Notes: generated from the sequence alone by a model not told the origin. Counted from the first letter of the stretch, positions 7,264-38,173 are shown. The stretch is 64,000 bases of DNA from Candidatus Parcubacteria bacterium (GCA_023132155.1 JAGLYP010000008.1:4846-68845); one strand, 5' to 3'. Numbers and translations: made by a program.

Positions 7264-7273
7264 AAAATATAAT

Positions 7274-9825: not shown

Positions 9826-10271
9826 GGGGATAAAACTTAGCTTATAAAATTTAAAAAATAATTTTAAAAACTAAATTCTTAAAACAAAATAATAAAATTT
9901 ACCCCGCTCTAAAAACAAGAGTGGAGAAAAATAAGCTTATTTTTAATGTACATAACAAAATTTCGACCTTTTTTACTCGCGAAAAGCGCAATTAACGAGT
10001 AATTTTGTTACTGTGAAATTATTATAACATATTTTTCTATATTTATAAAATATTTTGTAAAAATTTTAATTATAAAAAATTTAAAAAAATAATTTAACTA
10101 ATTTTAGATAAATTATTTTATTTAACAAACAAATAAATTTTATAATTTTTTTATATTTTCCTTATAATTGATTTATAATTATTTTTATTTAAATAAGCTG
10201 TGGATAATAATGTCATACAACATATAACACACAGCATGCAACATTGTTGCGTGTTGCATGTTATATGTTTC

Positions 10272-10315
10272 AAACACAAAAAACCTTGCTTATAAAAGCA
10301 AAGCTTTTTGTGTTT
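10272..10315 (-). terminator. Rho-independent terminator of 10333..11415
   Basis: On the minus strand, aaacacaaaaagctttgcttttataagcaaggttttttgtgttt forms a hairpin followed by a T-rich tract. Confidence 0.6.
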
Positions 10316-15100: not shown

Positions 15101-18100
15101 GCCGCAAATTTCCATATCATCAATTGTGATATTGCCGCTGCCGGATTCAAACTGGCTTCCCTGCCAAACATATAATTTATTTCCCGACGCGACGTTAAAG
15201 GCGGTACCTGTTACCGCGCAAGAAATATCATTATCCTGATCAGAATCATAACTATTAATATTCGCGACTGTCAAAGGACCCGCGTCATCATGCCTGACAA
15301 TTATTCTATTTTGATATATATCAAAGCCTGTTACTTCGCCTTGTCCGGAATAACGGTTATAAGCTACGCCTTTTTCAATTTTTCCGTCAATATATATTAC
15401 AATCGGCGTGCCTGTCGCTTGCGGATCAATATCTTCAAATACAAAAGAACCGTCCACGGCTGAAGCCGCGATTGACCGTTCGTAAACGCCGTTAATGGCA
15501 ATGCTGATTGTCGGCGCGGTTAAAAGCGGCGTTAGGCCTTCGTCCGAATAAACTGCGCCGTAATAAGAAGGCACCAGCTTGGTTGTAACTTCTCCCGACG
15601 AATAAGACTTATTGCCAAACTGATCATAAGCCCAAATTTTAAATACATATTGATTATTTTTAATAAGCCCTGTGATAGTGGTTGTAGCCGCGCCTTGAAA
15701 ATCGGCATAACCTAAATTCTCATCCGTACTGGAGCTGTGCGCGCTATCGGATTCCGTTACGCCTGATGCCGCTTGTTTATAGAATATTTTATATTCAAAA
15801 AAATTATTGTCGCTTGAGGTTGCGCCAAATTCTAATGTTACCGAATTGTCGGTTTTACTGACAACCGTTAAATTGCCGGGGCTGGACGGATCCTTGTTGT
15901 CAACCGTTAAAGTGGTGGTGGCTAATGGATATTGATCGTCATAACCGTCATTAACGGTTAGCCGCAGGCAATATGTATCTTCCAAATCCGGAATATCACT
16001 GAAAGAATCCCAATCAAAACCAATGGTATTCGGACCATATTGAGTGATAATTTTATTGGAACCGGTACCGATTTGATATTCGTTCGCGTTGATAATTATC
16101 GGGTTGCCATAATCATGCTGAATATTATCAATATTTTCATCCAAAGTCGGATCCGCGGGCGAGCCAAAATCGCAAGCTCCGCCTTGGACATATTCAATTT
16201 TAGCTATGCTTGGATCATGGTCTAAATCTGTAACTAAAATTGAAATGTCTACCACGCCATTGCCGCCTATTTTTTGTTCGGCCGAAACAAAAGATCCGGT
16301 TGGTTTGGGCACAAGCGTTAGTTCCGGATATTTTTCATAGATATTTATATCTTCGCCTTCATAAGTTAAACGAAAACAATAAGTTTCTCCGGCCTCGGCG
16401 TTAACTGTTGGGATAATCGCATACTCAATTTCCGTATATTCATTCTGGCTTAAAGTCAAAGGCGAAGTGCTGGCAGACGGCGATTTTACCATATAGCCCT
16501 GCGCGTAAGAATAGCTTTCTGAATTAACAAACTTTTGAAAAGTTGCGTCTTGATTATTAAAATAAGGGCTGTCGTACATGGAAAAATGCTCTGTTCCCGC
16601 GTTAATCGGCACCGAAATCCAAGGATCAGCGCTTGCGCAATCCCCGTTTTTGACGCCGTATTCAATTTGGTAAGCATAGTTCGTTGAATCCCAATCGCCG
16701 ACATTAGATATTGCAACGCGCAAGCGTACCGGTGTTTGCCGTCCGATTGGCGTACTGGTTGCCGGATCAGGATAATCTTCATATTCGCGCCAAGTGGCCG
16801 AAGGCACTATTATCGTCGTAGTCGCCAGTTCCTCTGTCGCGCTCGCTTTATTGCCATAATTATCATAAGCCCAAATATTAAAATAATAATCCGTATTTTG
16901 TTCCAGACCGTTAATCGTAACCGCGTTTGCGCCGTCAAAAAATATATCAGCTAAACTATTATCATCATATTGATTAAATTCACTGTCAGACTCCGTAACT
17001 CCGGGAGTACTCTCTTTATAAAATATTTTATACTCTTTAAAATTGGTTTCCGTGGTCGTTGCTCCGAGTCCGATCTCAATTTCCAAACCACTGACTAAAA
17101 CCGCGCTTAAATTCCCCGGATCAGCCGGATTGGTATTGTCAACAGTCAAGGTGGTTGTTGCGGAAATAGCTTGATCGTTAGTGCCGTCATTAACCGTTAA
17201 TCTTAAGCAATAAGTGCCGTTGGCGTTTGGAATATCGCTTTTAGAGTCCCAGTCAAATTCCACTGTATTCGCGCCTAAGTTGGTAATAATTTTAGTGGAA
17301 GTGCCAATTTGATAAACGTTGTTATTACCAATATCCGGATCCCCATGGTCGGCGGCAATATTAGCGCCGTCTTCATCCAATGTCGGATCCTCGGGCGAGC
17401 TAAAATCGCAACCGGCGCCTAAAACATATTCAAGCTTGGCAATACACGCTTCGCCGTTAACATCATATACTTCAATGGAAACATCAACCACTCCGCTGCC
17501 GTCGGTTTTTTGCGCGGTAAACAATGGATTAAAATCGCCTGTCGGAAGCGCATTAGTGGAAATTGTTGTTTGCGAAGAATTTGATTTGTTGCCGTAATCG
17601 TCATAAGCAAAAATTTTAAAGCTATACTGTTTATTTTCATCCAGCAATTCAATTGTTGTGGTTGCGGCGCCATAAAATAATATATCTCCTAAATTAGAGT
17701 CAGCATGAGGTGTATCGCCTTCATCAACTGCGGATACGCCTTCTTTATAATATATTTTATATTCTTTAAAATTTGTTTCGGTGGTAGTCGTGCCAAATTC
17801 CAAAGTAATTGAAGAGCTGTCAGAAGAATAAAGGCTTAAATATCCGGGAACAGTCGGCGCGGCATTATCAATCGTAATTGTTGTGGTCGCGCTTACGGAT
17901 TGGTCTTCAATTTGATCGTTAACGGTTAGCCGCAAACAATACGCGCCGTCGCCTTCCGGCAAATTGCTCTGAGACAACCAATCAAAATTTACGGTATTTT
18001 GTCCGCTTGCGGTCGTAATCCAACCGGATGCATCACCAATTTGATAATCATTATTGTTGTCAATTTTCGCGTCATCATAAGTGCTTGTGGCATTAGCGTC

Positions 18101-21100
18101 TGTCGCATCCAGAGTTAATTTATCAGCCGAAACAAACAAACAGCTTGCGCCTGCTTCATATTCTATTTTTGCCTGAAGCTCCTCATCATCTATATCATCA
18201 ACTTGAATTGATAAATCAACTGCTCCGCTGCCATCAATCCTTGTGCTGGCGCTTGAAAAAAATCCAATCGGCAAATTATTGGTTTTATAAGTGAATTCTT
18301 GCGTGGAACTGGCAATATTGCCCGCCTCGTCATAGGCATAAATATTAAATACATAATCAAGACCTGCCAATAAACCGCTTACGCTTGTCGTGGCTGCTTC
18401 GTCAAAATCAATAAAAGCCAAATTAGCATCATCACTGAAATTAAATTCATCGTTATCCTCGGTAACTCCGCTTGTGCCTTGCTTATAAAATATTTTATAC
18501 TCGCTAAAATTATCTTCCGTAGTAGTCGCGCCAAAATTAAGAGTTATGGAATAGCTGTTATAGCTTGCCAAGCTGAGGGCGCCGGGATTTGCCGGCAAAG
18601 TGTTGTCCAATTTAAAATTCGGGCTTGTGGCATTAAAAACCGTCCATTCTGAACAAGAACCATTATCATCGCAAGCCAAAACCTGCCACTTAAACCCGGC
18701 GGAAGAATCGGAAATTCCCGTTGGTTTTATAAAGCCAATAAAAGGCGTGATTGAATAATTGCCTGGCGCGCTTGCAGTCTGCCAAAATTTACTCGAACAA
18801 TCCTCATAAGCAGTGCTTGAGGCGCAAGCTCCAAATGGCGCAGTGGTAGCGGTGGCAAAAGTTTCAATGTCTGTAATTAGTTCAAAATACAAAGTCAAGA
18901 CTTCGCTGGTATCGCTGTCTAAAACGCTTGCCGTTAATTCCACAACATCCTCTTCTGTCCAATCACCGTTCGCAATCGCGCTTACGCCATCATTTTTGAA
19001 TTGCGCGGGAGAGCTGGGATTATTAGGCAAGTAGTTCGTTGTTGCCGTTAATTCAGCTGTCGCGCTTGCCTTATTGCCATAAGTATCATAAGCCCAAATA
19101 TTAATTACATATTCTGTGCCCGGACTTAAATTGTTAATGGTTGTAGTAGCGGTATTATTATACAAAATATTATCCAAATCCGGATCGTCATGTTCGCTAT
19201 CGCCCTCAGTAACTCCGCTAGAACCTTCTTTGTAATATATTTTATAATCTTGAAAATTCGACGCGGTAGTAGTCGCGCCAAAATTAAGCGTTAAAGAATA
19301 GCTGGTTTTTGAATTAAGATTCAAACTGCCCGGAGAAGCGGGGCTGGTATTATAAACTGCGATAGTAGCCGTTGCCGGACTTATCTGGCTGAATGTGCCG
19401 TCATTAACAGTTAATTGTAAACAATAGTCACCGCTTGTTTCAGGCAAATCTGTTTTTGAAAGCCAGTCAAATTCAACCGTATTTGAGCCGGGCGAAGTCC
19501 AAATCCAGCCTGTGGTCGTGCCAACTTGATATTCACTCGTATTGTCTACATCCACGTCTCCATAATCTTGGCTGATATACGCTCCATTTTCATCCAGAGA
19601 TGGGTCTTGCGGCGAACTAAAATCACAAGCAACTCCGGCAACATAGTCAATACGCGCGCGCAAAGTATCATCATTATCAGGATCATCAACTTCAATGGAA
19701 ATATTAATTCTGCCTGAGCCGTCTTGCTCTTGCGAAACCGAATTAAAACTTGCCACAGGCGGAGAAGCAGCGGAATCAGTTGTTACAGTTATTTCCGAAG
19801 CATTGGCTTTATTTCCGGCCTCGTCATAAGCCCAAATATTAATCACATACTCTGTGCCGGCCGACAAGCTATCAATCGTTGTAGTTGACTCGTCATTAAA
19901 ATCAATATCCAATAAATTTTCATCACTGCTTGAGCCATGCTGTAAGTTTGATTCAGTAACACCGGAACTGCCCGCCTTGTAATAAATTATATACTCTCTA
20001 AAATTTGCTTCCGTGGTAGTCGCGCCAAAATTAAGCGTAATACTTGTGCTGGTTTTCGCGTTTTCACTTAAATCTCCAGGAGTATCAGGGGCGCTATGGT
20101 CAACTTTAAAATTCGGATCAGCGCCGGCGTCCGTCCAATCGGTGCATTCATTATTGTCATCGCAGGCCATAACGCGCCATTTATAACCGACAACTGAATC
20201 TGGAATATCAGTTGGATTAACTTCTCCAGTATATGCGACAGAACTGTAATCACCGGCCGCGGACATAATTTTCCAGACTTTATTTGAACAAGCATCCCAA
20301 GTTTCGCTAACCGCGCAAGCGCCGACAATATTTCCCACAAAAGCATCTGTGCTGGTTGCCAGTTCAAAATAAAGTGTTAATATTTCGCTAAAATCGTTAT
20401 CATTTACGCTTGCTTTTAATTTAATATTATCCTCATTAGTCCAAATACCATTATTAATTTGAGTTACTCCATCGTTTTTTAATTGCGTAAGTGACGCGGG
20501 GTTGGAAGGCGCGTAATTTGTAGTAGTGGCAATTTCAGATATTGCCATTGATTTATTACCAACTATATCATAAGCCCAAATATTAAAAACATACTGCGTG
20601 CCGGTTGCTAAACCGTCAATAGTAACGGTTGTGGCGGTTTGATATAAAATATCTCCCAAATTTGAATCATGCGTGGAATTAAATTCCGTATCAGATTCAC
20701 TTACGCCTGATGCAGCTTGTTTGTAATAAATTTTATATTCGCTAAAATTTACCTCTGTGGTAGTGGCGCCAAAATTTAAAGTTATGTTATCGCTGGCTTT
20801 GGAATTAAAAGTCAAATTTCCAGGGGCAGTCGGCGTATTCGCGTCAATCGCGTCACTGTCTTGCGAAATCGGAGTGGCATAAACGGCGCTTTGGTTGGTA
20901 GCAACATCAGAAATTACGACATTAGCGACTGAAATATTTGAACTGGACGCGACATCAGCGCCGCCTTCGGTTATTGTGAACTGCGCCGTGTAGGTGGTGG
21001 AGTTGGAACGGGTAAAATTAGATAACGCGAAGCCGTTGATTGTGCCGGAGCTTAATGAATAAGTTTCACCGCCGTCATCTTCAGTTGTGAATGTGGCGGT

Positions 21101-28400: not shown

Positions 28401-30702
28401 CAGTGTCTCCATTACACATATCGTTTCTAACCACAAGACCGTCATCTGTGCTCATCTCTGTTACAATGCCATTAGGCGATTCAATCGTCATATATAAATC
28501 CGCGTCGCAAATTGTACGCCCGTAATTATCCAAAACCGCCATCTGTAAATAAGCGCTTTCATCATCAACCGTATAAACAGACTTATTAGCATTAATCGCT
28601 AAAACGCCCCAGCTAAAATCCTGCTTAATCTCAATTATCTCTAACTCATCTCCGGAGCTATCTTCAATAATAAATTTTATTGAATATTTCCCTGGCCTTA
28701 ATTCGCGATTATACTCCGGCAATTTAATCGTAAACTCGCCATCTTCCTCAAAAATCATAGTCAAAGGCAAATCAATTTTTTCTCCAAAATTATTCAAAAG
28801 TTCCGCCCTGATATTTATATCCTGCCAAAAGCTTGCTAAGCCGAGAAATTCACTTAAAGACTCAAAAATATTTAATTTTTTCCGATTAAAACGAAACTTT
28901 AATTCGCCTGTTTCATTCACTTTAAAATCAATCTGCCCGGATAATAATTCCAAAGCATCCTGCCATTTTTGTCTTTTTTTAATTTTAATCATTTTTTCAC
29001 TCGGTTCAAATTCCGCCTCCACCCAAACGCTGTCTAAATAAGCGCTAAACTCCATCTGATTATTACTATAAGCTTCAAATTTTATATTCAACCTTTCAAC
29101 ATCTTCCCAAGATTCAAGAAAAGGAGCGTCATAATTAAAATACCCGCCGTTTAAAGAATTTGACAGACGCTTTCCATTGAGAGTATCAAGTTTCTGCCAT
29201 AATTTTTTCTCATCATCCGCGGACTCCGACAAGGAATACCAAATTATTATTTTAGCGGCGCTTGCTTCAGTCGTTCGCGCGTTGGCGCTTGCCAAAGAAA
29301 ACCACTTTTCTATTTTCTGAAGCCTGCTTAACTCTTCCTTGCTTCTTTCGTCTTTAATATTAGTAATCTCTTTTTTTACCTCCTCTTCAATAATCATCTC
29401 ATCTAAAACCTCATCGCTATCCTCAACATCATCTTTAATAACCTCGGTTTTATCTTCAATATCATCATTATCCATAATTTCATTTTCTATTTCATCAAAA
29501 TACTCATTATCCTCACCATCCTCTAACACCTCAACATCAAACAATTCGCCGCTATCTTTGGAATCTTCTTCAATAAAATTCTTTTCAATAGAATTCTCTT
29601 CAATCTCAACTTCCAAATCTTCAAAAACATCTCCGTCAATCCTTGATTCTTGATTCTTGATTCTTGATTCCATGTCAACATCAACATTCATCGCAAAAGA
29701 AAATTTAATCTTGGCCTTTTTAAATTCACCCAAATCGAAAAGGCTTGTTAATTTATCGTTAATTTTTTCTTTTGCGTGAGCAATTAAAATTGTAAAAGAA
29801 CTTTTCATTTTTTTAAACCAAGATATTTCCTGTTCTTCATTCATGTCTTCCTCCTCGGTAATAACTTCAACTATTACTTCCTCAACAGATTCTTCAAATA
29901 CTTCAATAAAAGCTTCCATATCATCATCACTTTCAGGCTCAACAATTTTTACTTCTTCCTGTTCTCGCGCGCCGCTTTCATCATCTTGAATATCTTCAAT
30001 TGATTCGCTGATTTCCTCTTCTTTCGCGCCGCCTTGAATCCCTTCAATTAGCTCTTCTGTTTTATTTTCCGTAAAATTCTCCATATCCCGAACTTCATTA
30101 TTCTCTTCTTCTTGAATATTTTCCAATCCACGCAATCCAACATCATTGCTCTCGTCCGAATTTATATCTTTTCCCAAAATATCACTTGCTGTATTTTCTA
30201 TAATTTCCACTTCAGTGATTATATCCGATATATATTGATCATTTTCTTCTAAATATTGATTAATTTTCTCAGTATCAACCAGCCTTAAATCATCTTCCAA
30301 AAATCTAAAACCGCTTAAAACCAAGCCGGCATTTCCACCGGAATAAAAAGCGGAATTTGTATCTGAAAATTCAATTAAACCGGCAGATGGCGATAAATCA
30401 ACATCGCCAACAAGTTTTTCAGTATTCCACCAACCACTTTGAAAACTCTCGTCAGGATTATCTATTTTAAAATTCGCGGGATAAAGCTTGATTACTTCGG
30501 GATTTCCGCCAATCGCCTTGATTGATGTGATAATAAAATCCAAAGGCAAAAAAACAAACAAAATTAATAAAATCGTTAAAATCCCGGAAACAAAACGCCA
30601 GCCGGAACTTTTATGCCTGTTCCGGCTGGTTATTTTGTTTTTAAAGCCAAAAAAAGAATTATTTTTCTTTCGGCTTATTTTTCTTTTTTGACAAGCAAAC
30701 AT
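25432..30702 (-). CDS. Large (1756 aa) surface protein, paralog of the N-terminal and FN3 parts of the 4353-aa protein; apparently lacks the C-terminal anchoring module
   Basis: N-terminal TM WRFVSGILTILLILFVFLPL, followed by a long E/D-rich low-complexity region. It shares blocks with the giant protein (DFSWGVLAINANKSVY, FDAPDESPEFYLLGP, RFLYIDQIRIRV) and has FN3-like modules. It ends ...HYRWRNDDGGE*, exactly where a new module begins in the paralog. Confidence 0.8.
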   Translation of the reverse strand: MFACQKRKISRKKNNSFFGFKNKITSRNRHKSSGWRFVSGILTILLILFVFLPLDFIITSIKAIGGNPEVIKLYPANFKIDNPDESFQSGWWNTEKLVGDVDLSPSAGLIEFSDTNSAFYSGGNAGLVLSGFRFLEDDLRLVDTEKINQYLEENDQYISDIITEVEIIENTASDILGKDINSDESNDVGLRGLENIQEEENNEVRDMENFTENKTEELIEGIQGGAKEEEISESIEDIQDDESGAREQEEVKIVEPESDDDMEAFIEVFEESVEEVIVEVITEEEDMNEEQEISWFKKMKSSFTILIAHAKEKINDKLTSLFDLGEFKKAKIKFSFAMNVDVDMESRIKNQESRIDGDVFEDLEVEIEENSIEKNFIEEDSKDSGELFDVEVLEDGEDNEYFDEIENEIMDNDDIEDKTEVIKDDVEDSDEVLDEMIIEEEVKKEITNIKDERSKEELSRLQKIEKWFSLASANARTTEASAAKIIIWYSLSESADDEKKLWQKLDTLNGKRLSNSLNGGYFNYDAPFLESWEDVERLNIKFEAYSNNQMEFSAYLDSVWVEAEFEPSEKMIKIKKRQKWQDALELLSGQIDFKVNETGELKFRFNRKKLNIFESLSEFLGLASFWQDINIRAELLNNFGEKIDLPLTMIFEEDGEFTIKLPEYNRELRPGKYSIKFIIEDSSGDELEIIEIKQDFSWGVLAINANKSVYTVDDESAYLQMAVLDNYGRTICDADLYMTIESPNGIVTEMSTDDGLVVRNDMCNGDTVISLPDYYAHYMLYSAGEYKINLSAATGNGFYSIQDRFEVREYAPFDIERAGPTRIYPKAEYDMVISVKANEDFSGDIVEYVPEGFEITNYKLQITNNKNKELELGNYDLEISNDTNKKNLKFKDVVLNQGDIFEFNYTFDAPDESPEFYLLGPAELIGFGTGTPFAEARSWQIASDAPVISTSTNGVNVNWTNPGNAWDNGTDTYASRDIPKKTSGGEPANYIQSSVNSATDLGGVINSVEIGIEAYVENTTVSAYLVAYFDGTTAGTIHSIAGATLGTASSDITNYVTITTEGPGSGNWTWDDIMNLDIRVYGGNSSNSANRFLYIDQIRIRVDYTANTPPNATFLSAKQRVDDSGIVDISIQVSDANNDDSRARLDYVLGADCDFNSPLDPTLDAAEANATSSILDVDIDNDWPYQVGTTTDLIRTTSANDVHFDWTSLSDISNADGTYCLRITANDFDNDDATPATTTVVIDNKAPTAPGVFSGASTTKSTAVLYFGATSTETHFDEYRVYYSTSTPVTENDYLHSSSTDENLTDIDFYGAATTTITDLLENTIYYFSLFAYDEYGHVSSSTPEDFTTNKTPLGVFSTSSPAAQRTDGSGIIDITIEVDDFNNDHSKAKIEYATGSDCIFSPAGDPALDETQSNINPTYGVPKIENDNEYQMGMGAEFWIQTPATNTIEFDWFGKTDLPIGDDTYCLRLTVNDGKDDQNISATATLTIDNVNPTAPGNLSEYDVGTSTIILNFGATTTETNFTYYKIYYKAGISGVSESDDPHVDDNLNDLHYDSAATTTIGGLISNTDYVINIWAYDDFGSKASATEVVIKTAATISNDSLTFVNPTASNWAVAGEDDEWTFRAVVSEENGWQTINNVVLRLANETDNATPFSDLEFTWNQTADVFTKTGADANSVVILSNTSTSTCADNTCTLDFNLIFNHNFFASGTNYSAELYSSNDGALTDFNTYVDFYQVKIVKVKQIHYRWRNDDGGE
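28111..28142. repeat. Heptanucleotide tandem repeat (ATTTGTA)x4.5 inside the 1756-aa gene
   Basis: atttgta atttgta atttgta atttgta attt, encoding EITNYKLQITNN. The unit length is not a multiple of 3. Confidence 0.85.
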
Positions 30703-30753: not shown

Positions 30754-31294
30754 TTATAAATTATCATTCGCATGTCCCGCATTCGCAATTGGCGGGTTCG
30801 CAAAACGAATAACTTTAAAAAGACAAATTTTGTTCTATATTATTTAAATTTTGTAAATTTTTATTAGTATCAATATTTTTATCTAAAATTATATAAATTA
30901 TATAAAAACTCAATAAAGAAAAACTGATAACTATCACAAATAATAACGGCAGGGAATATTTAAAAGTCTTAAAAAATAACTTTATAATACCCATTTCCAT
31001 CACAAGCATCCGCCAACGATTTGCCAATTTTTCTCCAACACTTAGTTTGGCATCAGCTTTACCTTTATTTTTATAAGCCATAACCGCGTCCGCCGTAGTC
31101 ATCCAAGCAACAGTACAGCAAACCTGTTTTCCGGGAATTTTTCCGGTCCGAATTAACTGTCCAATATAATCAGCGGAATAATCGGAAATTTTAGCCGCGT
31201 CTTTTAAAGAAATTAAAGCTTTCTCGTTCATTTATGTTATTGCCTTCGGCAACCCGCCTCTGCGAATACGGGACATGCGAATGATAATTTATAA
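30754..31294. repeat. 541-bp segment bracketed by ~45-bp imperfect inverted repeats (26 bp perfect) that enclose the HTH gene; candidate invertible or mobile cassette
   Basis: The left arm ttataaattatcattcgcatgtcccgcattcgca..gcgggtt starts at 30754. The right arm aacccgc..tgcgaatacgggacatgcgaatgataatttataa ends at 31294. The outer 26 nt are exact reverse complements. Confidence 0.85.
30815..31231 (-). CDS. HTH (MerR/excisionase-like) protein with C-terminal transmembrane helix
   Basis: 138 aa. The N-terminus LISLKDAAKISDYSADYIGQLIRTGKIPGKQV is HTH-like. The C-terminal segment LPLLFVIVISFSLLSFYIIYIIL is a TM helix. Confidence 0.55.
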   Translation of the reverse strand: MNEKALISLKDAAKISDYSADYIGQLIRTGKIPGKQVCCTVAWMTTADAVMAYKNKGKADAKLSVGEKLANRWRMLVMEMGIIKLFFKTFKYSLPLLFVIVISFSLLSFYIIYIILDKNIDTNKNLQNLNNIEQNLSF

Positions 31295-31569
31295 TTTAGT
31301 TAATTTTAGCATTTCTCGACCCTCGAGATTGATATTTTCTGTCAAAATCTCGAGTAGCGAGATTTTTCTTTCTTGGCTATATTGTACCATTTTTAATGGT
31401 TAAGTTGCAAGGGCCTTAATTGATTTTATTAATTATTTTTGTTTTATTTTATTCTGCTAATATTAGTTATTTAAAATTTTGCAATATTTTATTATTATTT
31501 TTATTATTCTTAATTATTAATTTTTAATTATTAATTAAAAAATTGTGTGGATATCTTTTTGGGTAAAAT

Positions 31570-31690
31570 AGAAACTAAGTACCTGCGATTTTTTTATTTA
31601 ATATCCAAATAAATTTTAAATACAGCAATTAAATTGTTATATAAAATTAAACATTGTATAGCAACAAAAAATCGTAGATACTTAGTTTCT
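31570..31690. repeat. 121-bp element with 24-25-bp terminal inverted repeats related to the 8638..8723 palindrome
   Basis: The ends are agaaactaagtacctgcgattttt (31570-31593) and aaaaatcgtagatacttagtttct (31666-31690). These are the same termini as the 86-bp palindrome, but the AT-rich interior is not palindromic. Confidence 0.85.
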
Positions 31691-31970
31691 TCACATTTCT
31701 TGAATTTTAACTAAAATAATTGCTTTTATTGGACATTTTTGGTAATATTTAAATATACAAAATGTTTGGTTTAAATATTGACAATTTCCATTCATAAAAC
31801 ATTCTGATTGGAAATTTATATAATGATTTTAACTAATTTTAAATAAAATAATGGCAGGTTTGTATATTACTTGTTAGCTGAAATATTTCTTTTCTTTTCT
31901 GGGCTATTGCCCAATTGTTTTAAAAAATTTTCAAATTATTTCTTTATTTCTGGAAAAAATAAAAACTTTC

Positions 31971-32714
31971 ATGACAAAAAAATTCTCGAATCAATACTGC
32001 ATATATTGTTTAAAATATTTTGACGACCTCACTAAAGACCATATTTTTCCAGAATCATGGTATCCAAATTCAACTCCAAATAATAAAGAAAAATGGGTAG
32101 CTCCGGCATGCTTTGATTGTAATAATAAACTAGGAAAAATTGAAGAAGAAACTTATAAAAAACTTGCTATTAGTGTAACGAAGAATGATATTGCCGCCTC
32201 GGGAGTATCGGAAAAAGCTTCCCGTTTGTATAATCCAAATACAGCCAAAGATAAAAAAAGCAAAACACGCAAGATATCAAATATTAAAAAAATTATTCCT
32301 GACGTATATCCAGCCGATAAAATCCCGATAAATGCATTTATGAAAAATTGCGGTCTGAAAGAAAATGAACTTAATCAAAAACTTGCTGTTAATATTTCCT
32401 TCGAATTATTAGACTCATTTGCAGAAAAAATAATACGAGGATTAGAATTTAAGTTTAGAGACAAATTAATAAATCAAGAACACAGAAAAATTGATATTAT
32501 TCATCCACCAATTGGAATAGATCAAATTGCTCCTAATGAAATCAAAGAATTAAACAATATATTAAATCAGGATGGAGCTAAAGCTGATTGCGGTCCTGGA
32601 TTTAAAATTCGATATGTAGTTGATATATATAACACTAGTTTATACCACATTATTATTTGGGGTAAAATAGAAATTTGGGGAAACGTTTATAATACAAGTC
32701 TAAGAACAAAATAA
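31971..32714 (+). CDS. HNH-endonuclease-like protein (cassette 1)
   Basis: 247 aa. CIYCLKYFDDLTKDHIFPESWYP...APACFDCNNKLGKIEE matches an HNH/Cys-pair signature. Confidence 0.55.
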   Translation: MTKKFSNQYCIYCLKYFDDLTKDHIFPESWYPNSTPNNKEKWVAPACFDCNNKLGKIEEETYKKLAISVTKNDIAASGVSEKASRLYNPNTAKDKKSKTRKISNIKKIIPDVYPADKIPINAFMKNCGLKENELNQKLAVNISFELLDSFAEKIIRGLEFKFRDKLINQEHRKIDIIHPPIGIDQIAPNEIKELNNILNQDGAKADCGPGFKIRYVVDIYNTSLYHIIIWGKIEIWGNVYNTSLRTK

Positions 32715-32780
32715 AGAAATAATTTGAAAATTTTTTAAAACAAATTTTCTTATCAGAAAACAAAAGAAAAGAAATACATC

Positions 32781-32881
32781 AGCTAACAACGCGATATCCG
32801 GTTACGGCTCTTCCGAGAGCCTACACCCAAATTTTCTTCCGCTTCGCTCCAAAAAACTTCGGATATCGGTAAACGTTAGCT
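32781..32881 (+). repeat. attC-like element 1 (101 bp)
   Basis: AGCTAAC-aacgc-GATATCCG...ggctcttccgagagcc...CGGATATC-ggtaaac-GTTAGCT. The outer and inner boxes are complementary, the spacers are unequal (5 vs 7 nt), and there is an internal hairpin. Confidence 0.65.
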
Positions 32882-32910
32882 AAAATAAATTTTTATCTTA
32901 TTGTTTTTAT

Positions 32911-33336
32911 ATGAGTTGGAACAAAATAATCAGTAATAAATCAATGGAAATCGTCTTTAATTTTGAAAAATCGAATGGCAGATTTCCAGAGGAGGTTCAT
33001 ACAACCGGTGTGGGTTATGATATTCTTTCTAAAAACCAAGGCGAAGAAAGACATATAGAAGTAAAGGCAACAAGTGAGCTATGGTCCACTTACACATGGC
33101 TTCCTCTTTATAAAAACGAAGTCCAAGCACTAAAAAATTTTCCGGATAAATTTTATTTATATATCGTAAAATTTGACCTAGATAGAAATAATAGAAATGA
33201 AGATTCATTGAACTCAGCGGATTATGAACTTTTTATTATTAACGGTCAAAATTTATTAAATAAATTTAAAATTACCCAGGAAACTTATAGCTTGTCTCCT
33301 ATTAGCAGAAAAAAACTTACTGATTACAAACAATAA
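32911..33336 (+). CDS. PD-(D/E)xK nuclease-fold protein, DUF3883-like (cassette 2)
   Basis: 141 aa. The GVGYDILSKNQGEERHIEVKATS pattern (D...E-x-K) resembles the restriction-endonuclease-like DUF3883 core. Confidence 0.45.
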   Translation: MSWNKIISNKSMEIVFNFEKSNGRFPEEVHTTGVGYDILSKNQGEERHIEVKATSELWSTYTWLPLYKNEVQALKNFPDKFYLYIVKFDLDRNNRNEDSLNSADYELFIINGQNLLNKFKITQETYSLSPISRKKLTDYKQ

Positions 33337-33352
33337 GATAAAAATTGACATC

Positions 33353-33727
33353 AGCTAACACGGCGTATCCGACTACGCTTTAAAAAATTTAGTTAATTTT
33401 ATTTATTAATAAACAATCGTATGGAGGACTCAACACAAAATCTAAGTAAAAAAGAGAAAACTAAATACAACATAGGGCAAATTATAAAAATGATCGCCGG
33501 AGTATTTCTAATTTTATTTACATTAGCAAATAACGGTTTAGTTTCCTCTTTTAGTGCAGAGGCAATCGGGTATAATTTCTGGACTTTATTATTAATTGCT
33601 TTTGGAATATGGTTAATTTATAGCGGAATTAAAAAGTGGAAAAAGTAAAATTAACCAAATTTTTAGCTCCGTCCTAATTTTTGCTTCCGTTGGTCGCAAA
33701 AACTACAGATACTCCGATACGTTGTAC
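33353..33727 (+). repeat. attC-like element 2, split: left half (33353-33380) and right half (33655-33727) separated by a 75-codon ORF
   Basis: The left half AGCTAACacgGCGTATCCGactacgc matches the left halves of the other elements. The right half ccaaattttt..cttccgttggtcgcaaaaactacagatactCCGATACGTTGTAC matches their right halves. Confidence 0.5.
33421..33648 (+). CDS. Small two-TM membrane protein (cassette 3, nested in attC-like element 2)
   Basis: 75 aa with hydrophobic segments IIKMIAGVFLILFTLA and FWTLLLIAFGIWLIYSGI. It is bracketed by the IR aaaaatttagttaatttta (33383-33401) / taaaattaaccaaattttt (33646-33664). Confidence 0.45.
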   Translation: MEDSTQNLSKKEKTKYNIGQIIKMIAGVFLILFTLANNGLVSSFSAEAIGYNFWTLLLIAFGIWLIYSGIKKWKK

Positions 33728-33822
33728 GAAATAATTTTTTTATCTTAGTGGAGGTTTCAATACTTAGTGATTTTAACACGGCGAAAATTTGATTTTTTTA
33801 TTTATTTAAAAAGGGAAATAAG

Positions 33823-34290
33823 GTGTTTTCTCCGCTGTCGCTGCGAAAACGATTTATTAGTAATTTTATGGACAAATCAGAGAATAAAATAAATAAGACA
33901 ATTCAAATTATTTTTCTAATATTTTTCTTTGTTATTATTTGTTTTGGTGTTCAAAAAGCATATTCATCGGGGATAATATATTATTTAATTCTATTTGCTG
34001 TGTTAACATTAATTCCTGTAATTATAAAAGACTCTGATATTTTAAAATGCAGAATATCGCTTAGTAAATATATAAATTTTTTCATGGAAAAAAGAGAAAA
34101 CATGAAAAAAATAATAAAATCAAATAGATCCGATGATGATAAAATTAAAGAGGGTCAAAAATTGATCGATGAAGCCTTTAAATTAGGATATGAAGTAGGT
34201 GGAGGAAGGATTGTAAACAATATTCAGAATGTTAAATTTACGAAAAATAAAGATGGCGAAACCACAGATGTACAATTTGATGAAAATTAA
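33823..34290 (+). CDS. Membrane protein, unknown function (cassette 4, first ORF)
   Basis: 155 aa with a GTG start (an alternative ATG lies at 33868). Two hydrophobic helices (IQIIFLIFFFVIICFGV, YYLILFAVLTLIPVII) are followed by a charged C-terminal half. Confidence 0.4.
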   Translation: MFSPLSLRKRFISNFMDKSENKINKTIQIIFLIFFFVIICFGVQKAYSSGIIYYLILFAVLTLIPVIIKDSDILKCRISLSKYINFFMEKRENMKKIIKSNRSDDDKIKEGQKLIDEAFKLGYEVGGGRIVNNIQNVKFTKNKDGETTDVQFDEN

Positions 34291-34354
34291 TATTCTTTAC
34301 TCAACAATTTTTTGAAAATTTGATTTTACAATAAAAAAATAATTAACAAAATTT

Positions 34355-35194
34355 ATGAAAAGACAATTTAAAATTTTTTTAATTATGGCGATTTTTGCTG
34401 TTATTATTATATTCTTTGCATATCAAATGACCCAAAAACAATCCTCAAAATATTCAAACGAAAAAAATTATTCTGATCAGATAAATAAAGGAAGAGATTT
34501 GCCTTTACAATATTCCGACCCTCCGCCGTTAAATACGAAAAAACAATTTATACCAATCGCCCAAGATATTATCGGTACTTGGTACATTGTATCATCAAAT
34601 CCAAAATATAAAAATAAAATTATCACTGATTACACTAAATTTACATTTTACTTAAACGGCAAATTAGACAGAAATCAATTTACATCTGATAAATACAAAA
34701 TAGATGCAGGGAAATACGCATTTTTAGAAGATGATAAAACCTTTCCTATTACATTTGGTACTGATGATATAAAAAAATCTAATCTCTTTTGGAAACTTGA
34801 TGAGGAAGGATTGGCACAGTCATATTACAAAAGTAAGAAAGATTCGGTATATATTAAAGAAGGATCAAAAGAATGGGATAAACGAGAAAAAATTACTATC
34901 ACAACAGAGCTACCTATATCTTTTATTAATCCTAATGATTTGCAGATTGGGAAAACATATGAATTATCTAAAAAAACACCACTTATGCCGGAGGTAAATC
35001 CAGTTGATTCTATTGCAGCCCTTGGCGATATGAGAGAACTTAGTGCTGGTAGTGCAATTAAAATTATTTCCATCGCTCAAAAAAATAACACCCCATGGTA
35101 TAATGTTGGCTTTATTAATTATTCAACTGGGAATCTTGATTATGGCTGGATAAATAGCATTGCTTTATATGGGCAGTCTTTAAAAGAAAAATAA
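34355..35194 (+). CDS. Secreted/anchored protein with possible C-terminal SH3b-like domain (cassette 4, second ORF)
   Basis: 279 aa with N-terminal TM FKIFLIMAIFAVIIIFFAY. The C-terminus AGSAIKIISIAQKNNTPWYNVGFINYSTGNLDYGWINSIAL resembles bacterial SH3 domains. Confidence 0.45.
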   Translation: MKRQFKIFLIMAIFAVIIIFFAYQMTQKQSSKYSNEKNYSDQINKGRDLPLQYSDPPPLNTKKQFIPIAQDIIGTWYIVSSNPKYKNKIITDYTKFTFYLNGKLDRNQFTSDKYKIDAGKYAFLEDDKTFPITFGTDDIKKSNLFWKLDEEGLAQSYYKSKKDSVYIKEGSKEWDKREKITITTELPISFINPNDLQIGKTYELSKKTPLMPEVNPVDSIAALGDMRELSAGSAIKIISIAQKNNTPWYNVGFINYSTGNLDYGWINSIALYGQSLKEK

Positions 35195-35339
35195 CCATTT
35201 ATTAAAATAATAAGGAGTTTTGGGCAAAGAGCATTCACCCCTTTAATTCCCCTCTTCCCTTTGCCCCAAAACGAAAAACAAAATTAAATTCTTTTTAAAA
35301 GTGATTTGCATTCGCAAATCAAAGAAAAATATATACATC

Positions 35340-35439
35340 AGCTAACAGCGTATATCGGGTTACGGCTCTTCCGAGAGCCTCCACCCAAATTTGTCTCCGC
35401 TACGCTACGACAAACTTCCGATATACGCATATGTTGTAT
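35340..35439 (+). repeat. attC-like element 3 (100 bp)
   Basis: AGCTAAC-agc-GTATATCGG-gttacggctcttccgagagcc...CCGATATAC-gcatat-GTTGTAT. Its central part is nearly identical to element 1, while the inner boxes differ yet stay complementary. Confidence 0.65.
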
Positions 35440-35460
35440 GCAATTTGATAAAAAAATTTT

Positions 35461-35820
35461 ATGACAATAGAAAAAATAAACCATAATGTTGAAAAACCTG
35501 AAAATACAAAAGAGCGTTTATTAAACGATTTCAAAATGTTTAGAAATGATTTCCTGGAGGGGTTTCCGGATGAAATACTTTTGCCTGATATGCCCAATTA
35601 TCACAGATATAAATGTCGTACTAATTTTTTCAACAATATCTCGATTCGCATTTTACGCATACAACACGAAGGTATTAAATTAAGCAATGAAGGTAAAATA
35701 AAATGTGATAAATTTATGGATTATTGTACGACATTAAAGGGTAAAACAGAACGCTACCAACAAGAAGACATTGATAAGGCCAATGAAATACTTGATGTTT
35801 TAATAAACGAATTGTCATAA
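35461..35820 (+). CDS. Hypothetical protein (cassette 5)
   Basis: 119 aa with no motif I recognise. The start and stop codons lie inside a 22-bp perfect IR (tttgataaaaaaattttatgac / gtcataaaatttttttatcaaa). Confidence 0.45.
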   Translation: MTIEKINHNVEKPENTKERLLNDFKMFRNDFLEGFPDEILLPDMPNYHRYKCRTNFFNNISIRILRIQHEGIKLSNEGKIKCDKFMDYCTTLKGKTERYQQEDIDKANEILDVLINELS

Positions 35821-35863
35821 AATTTTTTTATCAAACTCTGCGCCATCACTTGCCCTTCGGGGC

Positions 35864-36014
35864 ACACAACACGGTATATCTGGTTACAGAAAATTTCATT
35901 ATTAATTTAATAATGTACAAAATTTTCTTCCACCCAAATTTTTGCTTCTCTTTTCTTTATTAATTATAATAATGAAGAGAACCAAAAACTTCAGATGACA
36001 CCGAAACGTTATGT
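35864..36014 (+). repeat. attC-like element 4 (151 bp)
   Basis: ACACAAC-acg-GTATATCTG...CAGATGACAC-cgaaac-GTTATGT. The ACACAAC box is complementary to the GTTGTAT/GTTGTGT that opens this cassette at 35433. Confidence 0.6.
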
Positions 36015-36040
36015 GCTGTAGCGAATTCCTGAGCTATTGC

Positions 36041-36193
36041 ACATAACAACGCGATAAGCGGTTCAGGAATTTTCTTAAAATAATATATAATAATGAGAAA
36101 AAATTCCTTCTCCCAAATTTTTGCCTCTCTTTTCTTTATAATATATAATAAGGAAGAGAAACAAAAACTTCGCTTCATCGGTAAACGTTAGCT
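36041..36193 (+). repeat. attC-like element 5 (153 bp)
   Basis: ACATAAC-aac-GCGATAAGCG...CGCTTCATCG-gtaaac-GTTAGCT. It is preceded by a 40-bp ORF-less unit, GTTATGTGC..GCACATAAC (36008-36047). Confidence 0.6.
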
Positions 36194-36259
36194 GAAATAA
36201 CTAAAAACAAACTCTTTATTTATATTTTTTTTTCAAACCCCTTTTTAATTTTTTAATAC

Positions 36260-36937
36260 ATGAATATAAAACATACAAAATTAACTAATAAAATTCATTT
36301 GCTAACTTTTGAAACCCAGCAAGATATAACATCCACTTTTTTGCGTTTTCAGGAACACTATGAATCACCAAATTTTAGAGGGAAAATATTCTCTTTTGAT
36401 GAATTTAAGCAGTGGTATATTAAAACCTCACCAAATGGAAAGATATCCGGAAAGTTTACATATTATTCCGATTGGAACGGTTTTAATATTCCGTCGCATG
36501 TTTTAAAGCCTTTTTATGATGGTAAATTTAATCCGCTTTCCGAACAAGAAAGTAAATTGTTAGATATATTCAAGGATGAAGTGGGTGCATTTTATATTAT
36601 CGGTGTTCATAGTGGAACGAAGAAGATTGACCAGCTCTTGAATCATGAAATTGCCCATGGACTATTTTACACTAGTGATAACTATAAAGCTGATGTTTTG
36701 CGGATTCTCTCGCAGTTTGATGTCAGTGCTATAAAAGAGGAGCTGCGCTCAAAAGCAGGCTACCATGAGAAAGTGCTAAATGATGAAGTTCATGCATATA
36801 GCATTGATTCAGTGAGCAATTTAAAAACACCAATACCTGAAAGTTTATCCTCGAAATTAAAAAAATCATACGAAAAACATTTGAAAAAAAATATAAATAA
36901 ACAAACTCTTTATTTATATTTTACCAACCAAAATTGA
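36260..36937 (+). CDS. Hypothetical protein with HExxH motif (cassette 7)
   Basis: 225 aa. The NHEIAHGLFY motif and a later EVHAY suggest a possible metallopeptidase-like fold, but I recognise no family. Confidence 0.45.
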   Translation: MNIKHTKLTNKIHLLTFETQQDITSTFLRFQEHYESPNFRGKIFSFDEFKQWYIKTSPNGKISGKFTYYSDWNGFNIPSHVLKPFYDGKFNPLSEQESKLLDIFKDEVGAFYIIGVHSGTKKIDQLLNHEIAHGLFYTSDNYKADVLRILSQFDVSAIKEELRSKAGYHEKVLNDEVHAYSIDSVSNLKTPIPESLSSKLKKSYEKHLKKNINKQTLYLYFTNQN

Positions 36938-36985
36938 CTAAATATTTTTAATTGGATATAATTGGATATAGTTAATATATCCAAT

Positions 36986-37077
36986 CAAGTTATGCCCAAA
37001 GGGCACTAACAGTAAGCGAAAATATTCTCAGCCCGAGGCTGATCCGCCTCGGGAGGAAAATTCCTTGACTATAAATT
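36986..37077 (+). repeat. Dispersed repeat copy 1 (62-bp family, here with a 30-bp insertion)
   Basis: caaGTTATGCCCaaaGGGCACTAACagtaagcgaaaatattc[tcagcccgaggctgatccgcctcgggagga]aaattccttgactataaatt. It ends 1 nt before the fic ATG. Confidence 0.85.
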
Positions 37078-37078
37078 T

Positions 37079-38173
37079 ATGGCAAAATATATTAAAAAAA
37101 TAACAAAAAAACATACAGTCCCGGACAATTTTTCAAAACGAATTGAAAATATTCCCGCTAGTATTGTTTCTAAAATAGCAAAAATTGACGAATTAAAAGG
37201 GCAATGGATATCAGGGGCTCGTTTAAGTCCGCAAGTTTTAGGCAAACTTAAACGGTCGGTTTTGATTACTTCAACAGGCGCTTCTACCCGTATTGAAGGT
37301 GCTAGGCTGGCTGACGCTGACATTGAAAAATTGATGCGCGGATTAAATATTCAAAAATTCACTAACCGTGATAAGCAGGAAGTGAAAGGTTACTATGAAT
37401 TATTGGAAAATGTTTTTAATTCATGGAAAAATCTCAAATTCAACGAAAATATTATTAAACATTTTCACCAAGAATTACTAAAATATGTAGACAAAGACAA
37501 AAATCATCGTGGCGAATACAAAAAAGGAAAAAACAAAGTGCATATGATAGACGAAGCAGGACAATCAGTCGGTATTCTTTTTGACACCGCGCCTGCATAT
37601 CTTGCTCCTAGTCAAATGTGTGATTTAATGGAATGGACGCAAAAAACATTGGTAGAAAATAAGTATCATTCATTATTGGTGATTGGAAATTTTTTGGTTG
37701 AATTTTTAAAAATTCATCCTTTTTCTGACGGAAACGGAAGATTGTCCCGCGTGCTTACAAACTTGCTTTTACTCCAAAACGGGTATTTGTATATGCCTTA
37801 TGTTTCACATGAAAAATTAATTGAAGACAATAAGCCTGATTATTATATTGCCTTGCGGCGCAGCCAAAAAACAATGGGGTCGGAAAAAGATAATATTACA
37901 GATTGGCTTGATTTTTTCCTGGGTATTGTTTTAAAGCAATCACAAATGGCGGTAGAGCTTTTGTCCAAAGAAAATATAGAAAAAATACTGTCAAAAAAAC
38001 AGCTTGTTATTTGGCAATACATTGAAAAAGTCAAAGAAACAAGCACTGGTAATATTGTAAAAAATACAGGAGTGACGAGGCCAACTGTTAAGCAAGTATT
38101 GGAAGTATTGCTTAAACTTAAAAAAATTGAAAGAATCGGGCTTGGAAGAAGCACTAGATATAGAAAAATTTAA
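37079..38173 (+). CDS. Fic family protein (Fido domain with C-terminal winged-helix)
   Basis: 364 aa with the canonical Fic motif HPFSDGNGRLSR. The C-terminal TGNIVKNTGVTRPTVKQVLEVLLKLKKIERIG is wHTH-like. Confidence 0.85.
   Translation: MAKYIKKITKKHTVPDNFSKRIENIPASIVSKIAKIDELKGQWISGARLSPQVLGKLKRSVLITSTGASTRIEGARLADADIEKLMRGLNIQKFTNRDKQEVKGYYELLENVFNSWKNLKFNENIIKHFHQELLKYVDKDKNHRGEYKKGKNKVHMIDEAGQSVGILFDTAPAYLAPSQMCDLMEWTQKTLVENKYHSLLVIGNFLVEFLKIHPFSDGNGRLSRVLTNLLLLQNGYLYMPYVSHEKLIEDNKPDYYIALRRSQKTMGSEKDNITDWLDFFLGIVLKQSQMAVELLSKENIEKILSKKQLVIWQYIEKVKETSTGNIVKNTGVTRPTVKQVLEVLLKLKKIERIGLGRSTRYRKI

Follow-up and report, generated by a model that had tools for sequence, protein, structure and literature searches.

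An integron-like cassette array in a Candidatus Parcubacteria genome, with attC-like sites, a retained attI-like site and a probably deleted recombinase gene

Introduction

How could a row of small, co-oriented genes separated by attC-like repeats have been assembled in a genome stretch that shows no integrase, and by which enzyme? This question was raised by a 64,000-nucleotide (nt) stretch of Candidatus Parcubacteria bacterium (GCA_023132155.1, JAGLYP010000008.1:4846-68845), called the window here. Between positions 31873 and 37020, six cassettes and an attI-like site are found together with five attC-like elements (E1 to E5), which have the order R''-L''-three-way junction-L'-R'. Coordinates are window positions unless a comparison locus is named. 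The original prediction described the region as an integron-like array in a genome of the candidate phyla radiation (CPR), i.e., either a cluster of attC sites lacking integron-integrases (CALIN) or the work of an unfamiliar recombinase. The guessed origin was right, as the source records name the proteins Candidatus Parcubacteria bacterium. On the sequence evidence given here, the region 31793-37020 is very probably a recombination cassette array of a CPR integron-like family, from which the cognate recombinase gene was deleted.

Seven open reading frames (ORFs) lie on the plus strand of the array, i.e., 31971-32714, 32911-33336, 33421-33648, 33823/33868-34290, 34355-35194, 35461-35820, and 36260-36937. 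By Pfam search, HNH_5 was found in the first and NOV_C, a PD-(D/E)xK-type domain, in the second, as the original prediction had read them. The other five showed no significant family. No Rfam 15 family matched the window at the gathering score, and matches at E up to 5 over 31200-37200 were at chance level. No tRNA genes were found in the window, and a promoter and terminator scan gave counts no different from chance.

Fold and covariation of the attC-like elements

The complete window elements fold as an R''/R' stem, a bulge, an L''/L' stem and two hairpins (A and B), with bottom-strand z scores of -2.8 to -7.3 against shuffles. The two hairpins meet in a three-way junction with conserved CCCAAATTT and AAACTTC. 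The L''/L' stem is about 12 bp long, and the spacer is unpaired as a 1-nt/4-nt bulge. The core consensus, i.e., RYMYAAC for R'' and GTTRKRY for R', is near-canonical. The flanks are conserved as CATC ahead of R'' and GAAAT behind R', and nearly all matches to the search pattern described below show the full architecture. Two covariance models were used, R1 for short-type and R2 for long-type elements, of which R2 was added for the long elements E4 and E5 that R1 had not detected. With these family models, the four complete window elements scored 75-115 bits (E 3e-15 to 9e-25).

Covariation was examined in MAFFT alignments of 13 and 23 elements, both analyzed with RNAalifold. Compensatory changes were found in 18 of 22 pairs in the smaller and 24 of 30 in the larger alignment. 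When the structure was specified for the 23 sequences, pairing reached 95% in the L stem and 93% in each of hairpins A and B, against 31-49% in slid controls, and the observed covariation score was reached by none of 500 shuffles. Both sides of the L stem had changed in 9 of 12 pairs. For the variable R'' bases, pairing with the downstream R' of the same element was found in only 55% of cells. The attC-like sites and their compensatory L''/L' changes were thus borne out where they had been predicted, and the same architecture was found in 105 other loci.

The bottom strand was the more stable in 181 of 203 distinct elements (-22.3 vs -19.7 kcal/mol, p = 7e-30). Bottom-strand folding and extrahelical bases had been proposed as a check; the elements do fold, but without conservation of extrahelical bases. 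Of 23 aligned elements, 21 have an uninterrupted L stem, and the bulge columns 20 and 150 are filled in one and two sequences only, all of them E4 or E5. Three features went beyond the original prediction. The R stem runs on into the cassette ends by about 25 nt (median complementarity 25 nt, control median 0) with a conserved 2x2 mismatch at positions 10-11, i.e., GTTNNNNGA-AA-T vs A-CA-TCNNNNAAC; the three-way junction is conserved; and one attC encloses an ORF.

Two further motifs were seen in the elements. A conserved TAATAAGGA(A/G) motif lies on the 3' side of hairpins A and B in long-type elements (A2 columns ~58-66 and 122-130; window 35905-35915 and 36145-36155). A CCGCTnnGCTnC loop recurs in hairpin B of the short type and in some cassette leaders (window 33829-33850).

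Distribution of the element family

The conserved 3' half of the elements was turned into the pattern CCAAATTT N17-47 AAACTTC N9-13 AAACGTT, which was searched by exact matching in a database of one genome per species. By our own rough estimate, about 10 matches would be expected by chance. At least 119 stretches in species-representative genomes carried the pattern among the matches listed, mostly from Patescibacteria/CPR, and these comparison loci are labelled L007, L029, etc. CPR names stood in 43 of the 80 titles listed (among them Parcu-, Morani-, Peregrini-/Peri-, Sacchari-, Uhr-, Falkow-, Kerfeld-, Dojka-, and Magasanikbacteria, and WWE3). Ten of the remaining titles were unclassified, and the others were differently named, some of them chance matches that no model recognized.

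The covariance models detected 291 elements in 105 loci, arranged as same-strand arrays with up to eight elements per 8 kb. At E < 0.01, R2 gave 320 matches in the loci and the window. One or more elements were present in 105 loci, two or more in 73, and five or more in 21. The elements of a locus were on a single strand in all loci but 2, with a median spacing of 737 nt. In L084, two arrays converge on opposite strands within one 8-kb stretch, at 517-4467 (plus) and 5777-6959 (minus).

Family elements, some near-identical to those of CPR, were also seen in metagenome-assembled genomes (MAGs) labelled Chlorobium, Methanofastidiosia (an archaeon), Paludibacteraceae, KSB1, and Leptospirales, and further under the labels Thermodesulfovibrionia, Omnitrophota, Mycoplasmatota, 'Gammaproteobacteria', and 'Bdellovibrionales' (L009, L015, L022, L024, L054, L077, L011/L049, L037, and others). 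Isolate names of the form HK-STAS-PATE-xx suggest that several of these MAGs are mislabelled Patescibacteria; either horizontal transfer or an error of binning or labelling may account for the matches. The attC pattern had no match in viral contigs, and therefore there was no sign of a phage vector.

Junction signature and cassette exchange

If cassettes are circular and cross over in the GTT of R', the variable part of R' belongs to the next cassette, and hence R'' should fit the core that opens its own cassette. The four variable bases of R'' and R' were compared over 140 consecutive element pairs. R'' was perfectly complementary to the upstream R' in 75 of the 140 pairs and to its own R' in 15, against 6% for random pairs. 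The better match was to the upstream core in 82 cases and to the downstream core in 20. The rule had been predicted from the window, where it holds exactly for cassettes 1, 2, and 5, with one mismatch for cassette 4 and two for cassette 6, and fails for cassette 3.

Exchange at the core was also visible between two related arrays, L027 and L139, whose recombinases are 96% identical in amino acids and 88% in DNA. They have in common a 1.2-kb Peptidase_S66 cassette, 99.6% identical, which stands behind two unrelated attCs. The two junctions read ...CTCATATTCAGAAAC|GTTATATTCAATTG and ...CAGATATGCCGAAAC|GTTATATTCAATTG, so that identity begins at GAAAC|GTT (the bar marks the breakpoint). Compared with L027, L139 has an additional cassette of a methyltransferase and a HinfI-type endonuclease, i.e., a restriction-modification system, and a different first cassette. 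The flanks of the two attI sites are homologous as far as GAAAC(G/T)A and diverge exactly at GTT. Together with the junction statistics, this supports the predicted crossover in the GTT core, and cassette-level polymorphism, expected of related genomes, is present in this pair. Where homologous cargo was common to loci, its neighbours differed in all seven testable comparisons.

The proteins of the window cassettes, Fic excepted, had no homologues in the other 119 loci, and cassette sharing is therefore demonstrated in other arrays. Locus L123 has a cofE-like neighbour gene 70% identical to that of the window, and its cofE is preceded by other small ORFs and by an attC-like element of weak score (E 0.01), which is suggestive only. 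A metagenome synteny scan anchored on the cofE-like gene returned only 6 loci, all of them short upstream. The pair L029 and L136 was also considered as a polymorphism test and set aside as uninformative, being 99.9% identical, i.e., one strain.

The array-linked recombinase

Clustering of ORFs of at least 150 amino acids (aa) from the loci gave one dominant protein family, i.e., 24 proteins of about 270 aa, which tblastn extended to 27 loci. In 22 of the 24, the gene adjoins the first cassette on its upstream side and is oriented divergently. The share of 27 in 119 loci is no estimate of prevalence, because the loci were found through the attC pattern. The linkage was also found from the other side, as four of five homologues, picked only for their long contigs, adjoin attC-family elements on the divergent strand.

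The proteins carry the Pfam domains Phage_integrase and Phage_int_SAM_4, and are about equally near to archaeal XerA and to IntI. On the NCBIfam model NF040815 ('site-specific tyrosine recombinase/integron integrase', the XerA model) they scored 218-241 bits against a cut-off of 220. On the integron-integrase model TIGR02249 they scored 196-244 bits in two pieces, and none reached the cut-off of 265. The best match in the PDB was VchIntIA, the Vibrio integron integrase (2A3V, E 1.5e-44). This alignment is in two blocks, i.e., residues 7-178 on IntI 8-182 and 195-270 on IntI 242-317, and thus 16 residues stand for 59 of IntI. Compared with IntI1, about 45 residues of the IntI-specific domain are absent, including ALERKYP (the ALER patch). 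At E < 1e-30, the family comprises more than 7,251 clusters. Some of its members are already named 'site-specific tyrosine recombinase/integron integrase' in the source databases, so the protein family is known to annotators.

Several observations were made on single loci. The 303-aa recombinase of L099 (3309-4217) has an insertion of about 30 residues near, and not homologous to, the IntI insertion, and gave the top TIGR02249 score of 244 bits. In L130, an IS200/IS605-type Y1 transposase gene (6192-6794) lies among small divergent ORFs upstream of the recombinase, with the nearest attC-family matches at 7973-8085 and 9382-9592. Recombinase-bearing contigs are mostly 1-3 kb long, which fits with assemblies ending where arrays are repeated or vary between strains. 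A recombinase directly upstream of blaVEB-3 on a Klebsiella pneumoniae plasmid (L134, NZ_CP061701.1, 33315-34079) was followed as a lead and dropped, as that locus lacks CPR-family attCs. That enzyme is short, without the IntI insertion, 43% identical to the CPR enzyme, and found also on Aeromonas and K. michiganensis plasmids. Plasmids of Chryseobacterium and Clostridium estertheticum carry similar proteins under the annotation 'integron integrase' or 'site-specific integrase'.

The attI site and the deleted recombinase gene

In at least 13 complete loci, a conserved attI of the form TTCGTATAnAAACGA|GTTNNNN-GAAAT lies 76-180 nt from the recombinase start codon, and its GTTNNNN is the exact complement of R'' in the first cassette. 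A second box, TTCGTATAA, was found about 45 nt further upstream, and the two-box consensus was derived from 14 loci. The layout is dif-like, with a left arm TTCGTATAG, a 6-nt centre AAACGA, and a right arm GTTATATGAA (reverse complement TTCATATAAC).

The window has the same site at 31857-31885, reading GGTTTGTATATTACTT|GTTAGCTGAAATA, and GTTAGCT at 31873 complements AGCTAAC at 32781. Around it, the 86 nt of window 31790-31875 align at 75.6% identity with L029 2295-2380, the interval from the recombinase start codon to attI. The spacing from CAT (31793-31795) to GTT is 77 nt, the same as in L029. Leftward of this start codon no recombinase-like coding sequence follows. The original prediction that no tyrosine recombinase is encoded in the 64 kb held in every search. 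With family recombinases as queries, tblastn found no gene or pseudogene (best E 0.04), nor did a profile hidden Markov model (best E 0.96), and a Pfam scan of twenty window ORFs gave no tyrosine recombinase. Since attI and the start codon are kept and no such coding sequence remains, the window array is read as an attI with cassettes from which the integrase gene was deleted. The alternative left by the prediction, CALIN or unfamiliar recombinase, is thus answered at the level of the family, which has its own short IntI/XerA-like recombinase beside the arrays of related genomes, the window being a decapitated copy. Such an array can be rearranged only with recombinase supplied from elsewhere in the genome.

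Cassette cargo and frames

Of 183 cassettes, 158 have their longest ORF oriented from R'' towards R', and the ORFs have a median of 174 aa. Matches to 122 Pfam families were obtained for 150 cargo ORFs, among them NUDIX, SDR, radical SAM, methyltransferases, HD, GNAT, and Fic. This profile is as expected of an accessory-gene pool.

The cassettes also show recurring frames. Long inverted repeats, extending outward from the R boxes, flank each window ORF. Between cassettes of different genomes, leaders were common to 54 pairs and trailers to 76, with both in 22, and homologous cargo was found in one pair per set. In the window, such frame regions are 31872-31949, 32702-32812, 33716-33866, and 35203-35340. 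Mini-cassettes without an ORF were found in the window (36008-36193), L073, and L100, where the attCs are separated by a short hairpin, GTTATGTGC...GCACATAAC. In other cases the ORF occupies the place of hairpin A within the attC, with L'' on one side and the CCAAATTT junction on the other. This was seen in E2 and in 15 cases elsewhere (among them L007, L023, L037, L041, L079, L080, L088, L095, L098, L105, L108, L112, and L118), in which L''/L' complementarity is 9-10 of 10. The 13 enclosed ORFs that were extracted encode mutually unrelated proteins of 60-154 aa, including membrane, NUDIX-like, and GNAT-like proteins. The shared frames, the ORF-less cassettes and the ORFs inside attCs together suggest that hairpin frames exist first and receive genes in their loops, and the frames may thereby bear on how cassettes arise.

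Alternative explanations

Could the window array be an ordinary CALIN of classical integrons, with a canonical IntI elsewhere or in donor bacteria and with the short recombinases merely incidental? The near-canonical cores (R'' RYMYAAC, R' GTTRKRY) would suit it, and cassette size, orientation, and cargo diversity are like those of classical cassettes. Some matches are in MAGs labelled as phyla with reported integrons, e.g., Chlorobium, Leptospirales, and KSB1 (PMC8618304), and archaeal attC arrays are mostly without IntI as well (PMC9668308). Yet all 24-27 array-side recombinases lack the IntI insertion and stay below the TIGR02249 cut-off, their position and orientation are fixed relative to a conserved attI, and the reverse test leads from the recombinase to arrays in four of five cases. 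The extrahelical bases required by canonical IntI are not conserved, and the canonical attCs of dfrA17 and aadA5 escape the family models (best 6 bits). Such a CALIN is considered very unlikely. That the elements are structured intergenic RNAs with a role in processing, termination, or stability, or repeats resembling repetitive extragenic palindromic sequences (REP) or miniature inverted-repeat transposable elements (MITE) and dispersed by another route, with no cassette recombination, has an almost negligible probability. Covariation shows a conserved fold and by itself cannot separate RNA from single-stranded DNA; the elements lie between co-oriented ORFs and would be transcribed, and the conserved hairpin AAGG(A) motif resembles a ribosome-binding sequence. 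An RNA hairpin, however, would not predict that R'' finds its partner in the core preceding the ORF rather than in its own R', and in 181 of 203 elements the strand that is antisense relative to the ORFs folds better. The same explanation also has to face an identical cassette behind different elements with a breakpoint at GAAAC|GTT, the fixed association with a tyrosine recombinase and attI, and the lack of any Rfam match.

A third explanation would make the recombinase the cell's own XerA-like dimer resolvase, attI a dif-like site, and the cassettes akin to integrative mobile elements exploiting Xer (IMEX), comparable to CTX-phage hairpins and the pdif modules of Acinetobacter. XerCD does use a folded single-stranded site of the CTX phage. 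The recombinase has its top score on the XerA model NF040815, and attI reads like a dif site, i.e., arm, 6 nt, arm. A Xer-related 'Cand' subgroup of candidate phyla has been discussed together with class-specific simple recombinases that possibly compensate for Xer function (PMC8138268). This explanation is nevertheless regarded as quite improbable. The sites are hairpins of 100-160 nt in the same orientation with a hybrid R' box, not alternating 28-bp duplex sites, and the recombinase gene and the array are physically linked in the manner of intI. The recombinase-array locus of L130 is about 6 kb away from dnaA, not at the terminus position expected of dif. At the window locus the gene was lost, which would be odd for an essential resolvase unless a second copy exists. 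The Xer explanation and that of an integron-like family differ mostly over a second, housekeeping role, which the enzyme may have.

Several points weigh against reading the window as an integron-like array. With the defining IntI domain absent, classical integron biochemistry may not transfer to this recombinase, and the family models do not recognize the two canonical attC sites named above. Among the best 120 homologues of two recombinase queries, none was on the 769-kb scaffold of the window genome, where a copy acting in trans was sought. R'' of cassette 3 (AGCTAAC) does not match its upstream GTTGTAC; this mismatch is consistent with two cassettes fused through attC loss. The polymorphism seen between L027 and L139 did not extend to the window locus, whose cassette order is identical in three assemblies, and the window array therefore shows no polymorphism. 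The crossover is resolved to the invariant GTT and not to one bond, and the bottom-strand preference is solely one of folding energies. The elements are presumably also transcribed, which would allow an additional role at the RNA level. With these points taken into account, the integron-like array with a deleted recombinase gene remains very probable.

Comparison with known systems and proposed mechanism

The likeness to classical integrons (classes 1-3 and the Vibrio superintegrons) is broad. A tyrosine recombinase gene lies divergently beside attI in at least 13 loci, of which arrangement the window keeps attI and the start codon but not the gene. The arrays are made of mostly single, co-oriented, promoter-poor ORFs, each followed by an R''-L''...L'-R' imperfect inverted repeat that varies by compensatory change. 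The cores are near RYYYAAC/GTTRRRY, with a GTT crossover and a hybrid R', the cargo is diverse, and the bottom strand folds better. As with the classical crossover at G|TT of R', R'' fits the 5' core of its own cassette, and the bond within GTT is not resolvable.

The differences are in the enzyme and the details of the site. The CPR recombinase is without the approximately 45 residues of the IntI-specific domain that mark a classical integrase, and the CPR attC is without conserved extrahelical bases. In canonical attC sites, the unpaired spacer is a roughly symmetrical bubble, whereas that of the CPR attC is the 1-nt/4-nt bulge. The terminal structure of the CPR site is a sequence-conserved three-way junction (CCCAAATTT / AAACTTC). 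Its R stem extends about 25 nt into cassette-specific sequence, ORFs can lie inside the attC, and leaders and trailers are common to cassettes with unrelated cargo. The CPR system follows integron logic without the IntI-specific domain and without conserved extrahelical bases. A passage of PMC9668308, citing Messier & Roy 2001, treats that domain as necessary for attC recombination.

With five elements packed into 4.4 kb and 64 kb free of recombinase genes, the window fits a CALIN (PMC4889954) in having two or more neighbouring attC sites without an integron integrase close by, although its sites were called by family-specific models and not by the IntegronFinder model that defines CALINs. Unlike a CALIN, it retains attI and the recombinase start codon, and for this reason it is better seen as a recently decapitated platform than as a dispersed cluster. 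Archaeal integrons (PMC9668308) are similar in that their integron-type arrays also come from MAGs of uncultured lineages beyond the classical hosts and mostly have no integrase beside them, but archaeal IntIs are reported with the IntI-specific additional domain that the CPR recombinases lack. With Xer/dif systems, the CPR system shares a recombinase as near to XerA as to IntI and a dif-like attI, and the CTX-phage hairpin is a precedent for a folded substrate. It differs from Xer/dif modules, which have duplex sites of about 28 bp (11-6-11) and in pdif an alternating orientation, by its boundaries of 100-160-nt hairpins in one orientation and by a recombinase gene coupled to the array.

A mechanism can be proposed on this basis. 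The approximately 270-aa IntI/XerA-like tyrosine recombinase without the IntI-specific insertion, encoded divergently at about 100 nt from attI in intact loci, would act on the sites. The attC would fold from the bottom strand as single-stranded DNA into the R''/R' stem, the short asymmetric bulge, the L''/L' stem and the three-way junction. Strand exchange within the GTT of R' would excise the cassette as a circle, which would be re-inserted at attI (TTCGTATAnAAACGA|GTT). In the circle, the cassette ends would pair for about 25 nt further, with the 2x2 mismatch, and because of this the circular recombination site would be a long hairpin that is split on integration.

A broader and tentative proposal, whose chances we put a little below even, is that CPR/Patescibacteria own an ancient integron lineage. 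Its minimal IntI/XerA-like recombinase would recognize a three-way-junction attC rather than extrahelical bases, and its cassettes would be built on reusable hairpin frames with the ORF in the loop, sometimes inside the attC. The lineage may keep visible intermediates of cassette genesis and may represent the ancestral Xer-like state of IntI integrons. A 2021 review counted 14 integron host phyla, without Patescibacteria among them (PMC8618304). In the open-access literature, no description was found of integrons in CPR, Patescibacteria, Parcubacteria, or Saccharibacteria; an earlier description elsewhere is possible.

The arrays occur in more than 100 species-level genomes. They would be a dedicated route of accessory genes for episymbiotic bacteria with very small genomes, with cargo including restriction-modification, NUDIX, GNAT, and Fic. 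Metagenome surveys would count too few of these integrons, because tools that require the IntI domain would not report the arrays as complete integrons. They would also be a natural experiment on the choice of strand and orientation at folded DNA sites and on the evolution of IntI from Xer-like enzymes. Cassette genesis is the unsolved step of integron biology, and the CPR system may preserve its intermediates. With conserved frames around unrelated cargo, ORF-less cassettes, and ORFs inside attCs, the question of cassette creation becomes directly testable.

Cassettes of the window

The array begins with a remnant of the recombinase-attI intergenic region (31793-31872, minus strand), in which the start codon CAT (31793-31795) and a degenerate distal box (~31813-31825) are left and the recombinase ORF is gone. 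The attI-like site (31857-31885, plus) consists of the proximal box and the crossover core, GGTTTGTATATTACTT|GTTAGCT-GAAATA, and fits the conserved attI of related loci. All following features are on the plus strand.

Cassette 1 (31873-32875) has a leader arm (31873-31949), the ORF 31971-32714 encoding the HNH_5 nuclease (Pfam E 1.7e-6), and a trailer arm (32709-32789). The arms are complementary at 93% between 31871-31898 and 32762-32789 and at 100% between 31915-31949 and 32709-32743. The leader is 91-92% identical to the leaders of L033, L118, and L008, which are followed by unrelated ORFs. Its attC-like element E1 (32781-32881) is of the short type (R1 104.5 bits, E 8e-24; R2 75.4 bits) and 89% identical to L102 7189-7319.

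Cassette 2 (32875-33721) carries the ORF 32911-33336 with NOV_C (Pfam E 4e-16), between arms 32875-32909 and 33325-33359 that are 86% complementary. Its R'' AGCTAAC (33353) fits the upstream GTTAGCT and not the downstream GTTGTAC. Its attC, E2 (33353-33727), is split. R'' and L'' are at 33353-33375, the junction, hairpin B, L' and R' at 33660-33727, and the ORF 33421-33648, for a 75-aa membrane protein, takes the place of hairpin A. The 3' half was matched by R1 (33642-33733), and a stem between 33383-33407 and 33640-33664 is 88% complementary.

Cassette 3 (33721-35433) is composite, with a leader (33721-33866), the ORFs 33868-34290 and 34355-35194, and a trailer (~35203-35339) with a strong hairpin. 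The leader holds a degenerate hairpin-B-like motif, with a weak R1 match at 33773-33877. It is 76-87% identical to the leaders of L023, L114, L029, and others, and in L029 the counterpart is part of the first cassette after attI. The trailer resembles those of more than 15 loci. Its short-type element E3 is at 35340-35439 (R1 106.1 bits, E 3e-24).

Cassette 4 (35433-36008) carries the ORF 35461-35820 (119 aa, without a family), and its arms 35444-35489 and 35790-35835 are 78% complementary. The single mismatch between its R'' ACACAAC and the upstream GTTGTAT would be a G.T pair on the bottom strand. The long-type element E4 (35864-36014) scored 114.7 bits with R2 (E 9e-25), with a bottom-strand fold of z = -7.3.

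Cassette 5 (36008-36193) has no ORF and consists of GTTATGT, a 26-nt hairpin loop, and E5 (36041-36193; R2 105.7 bits over 36034-36199). Its R'' ACATAAC is fully complementary to GTTATGT upstream but not to GTTAGCT downstream.

Cassette 6 (36187-37020) carries the ORF 36260-36937 (225 aa, without a family), followed by a truncated attC, i.e., an R''/L''-like 5' half at 37004-37020 that opens with CACTAAC (37004). The arms 36195-36232 and 36884-36921 are 76% complementary. R1 had no match downstream of the truncated site.

At the end of the array, a Fic/DOC gene lies at 37079-38173 (plus; Pfam Fic E 1e-13), with no attC detected after it by R1. Fic homologues form the second largest protein family of the array loci (7 loci) and are also found as cassette cargo. 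The gene may be a former cassette, and its membership of the array is uncertain.

Two giant ORFs lie directly upstream of the array on the minus strand, at 12143-25204 (4353 aa) and 25432-30702 (1756 aa). They show faint fn3 matches and probably encode surface proteins. Intergenic palindromes at 7261-7360 and 10208-10273 gave weak R1 matches on both strands (12.9-15.1 bits, E 0.5-1.8). The ends of the second one (10209-10273) read CATATAAC...GTTGTATG, and both palindromes are probably chance matches or terminators.

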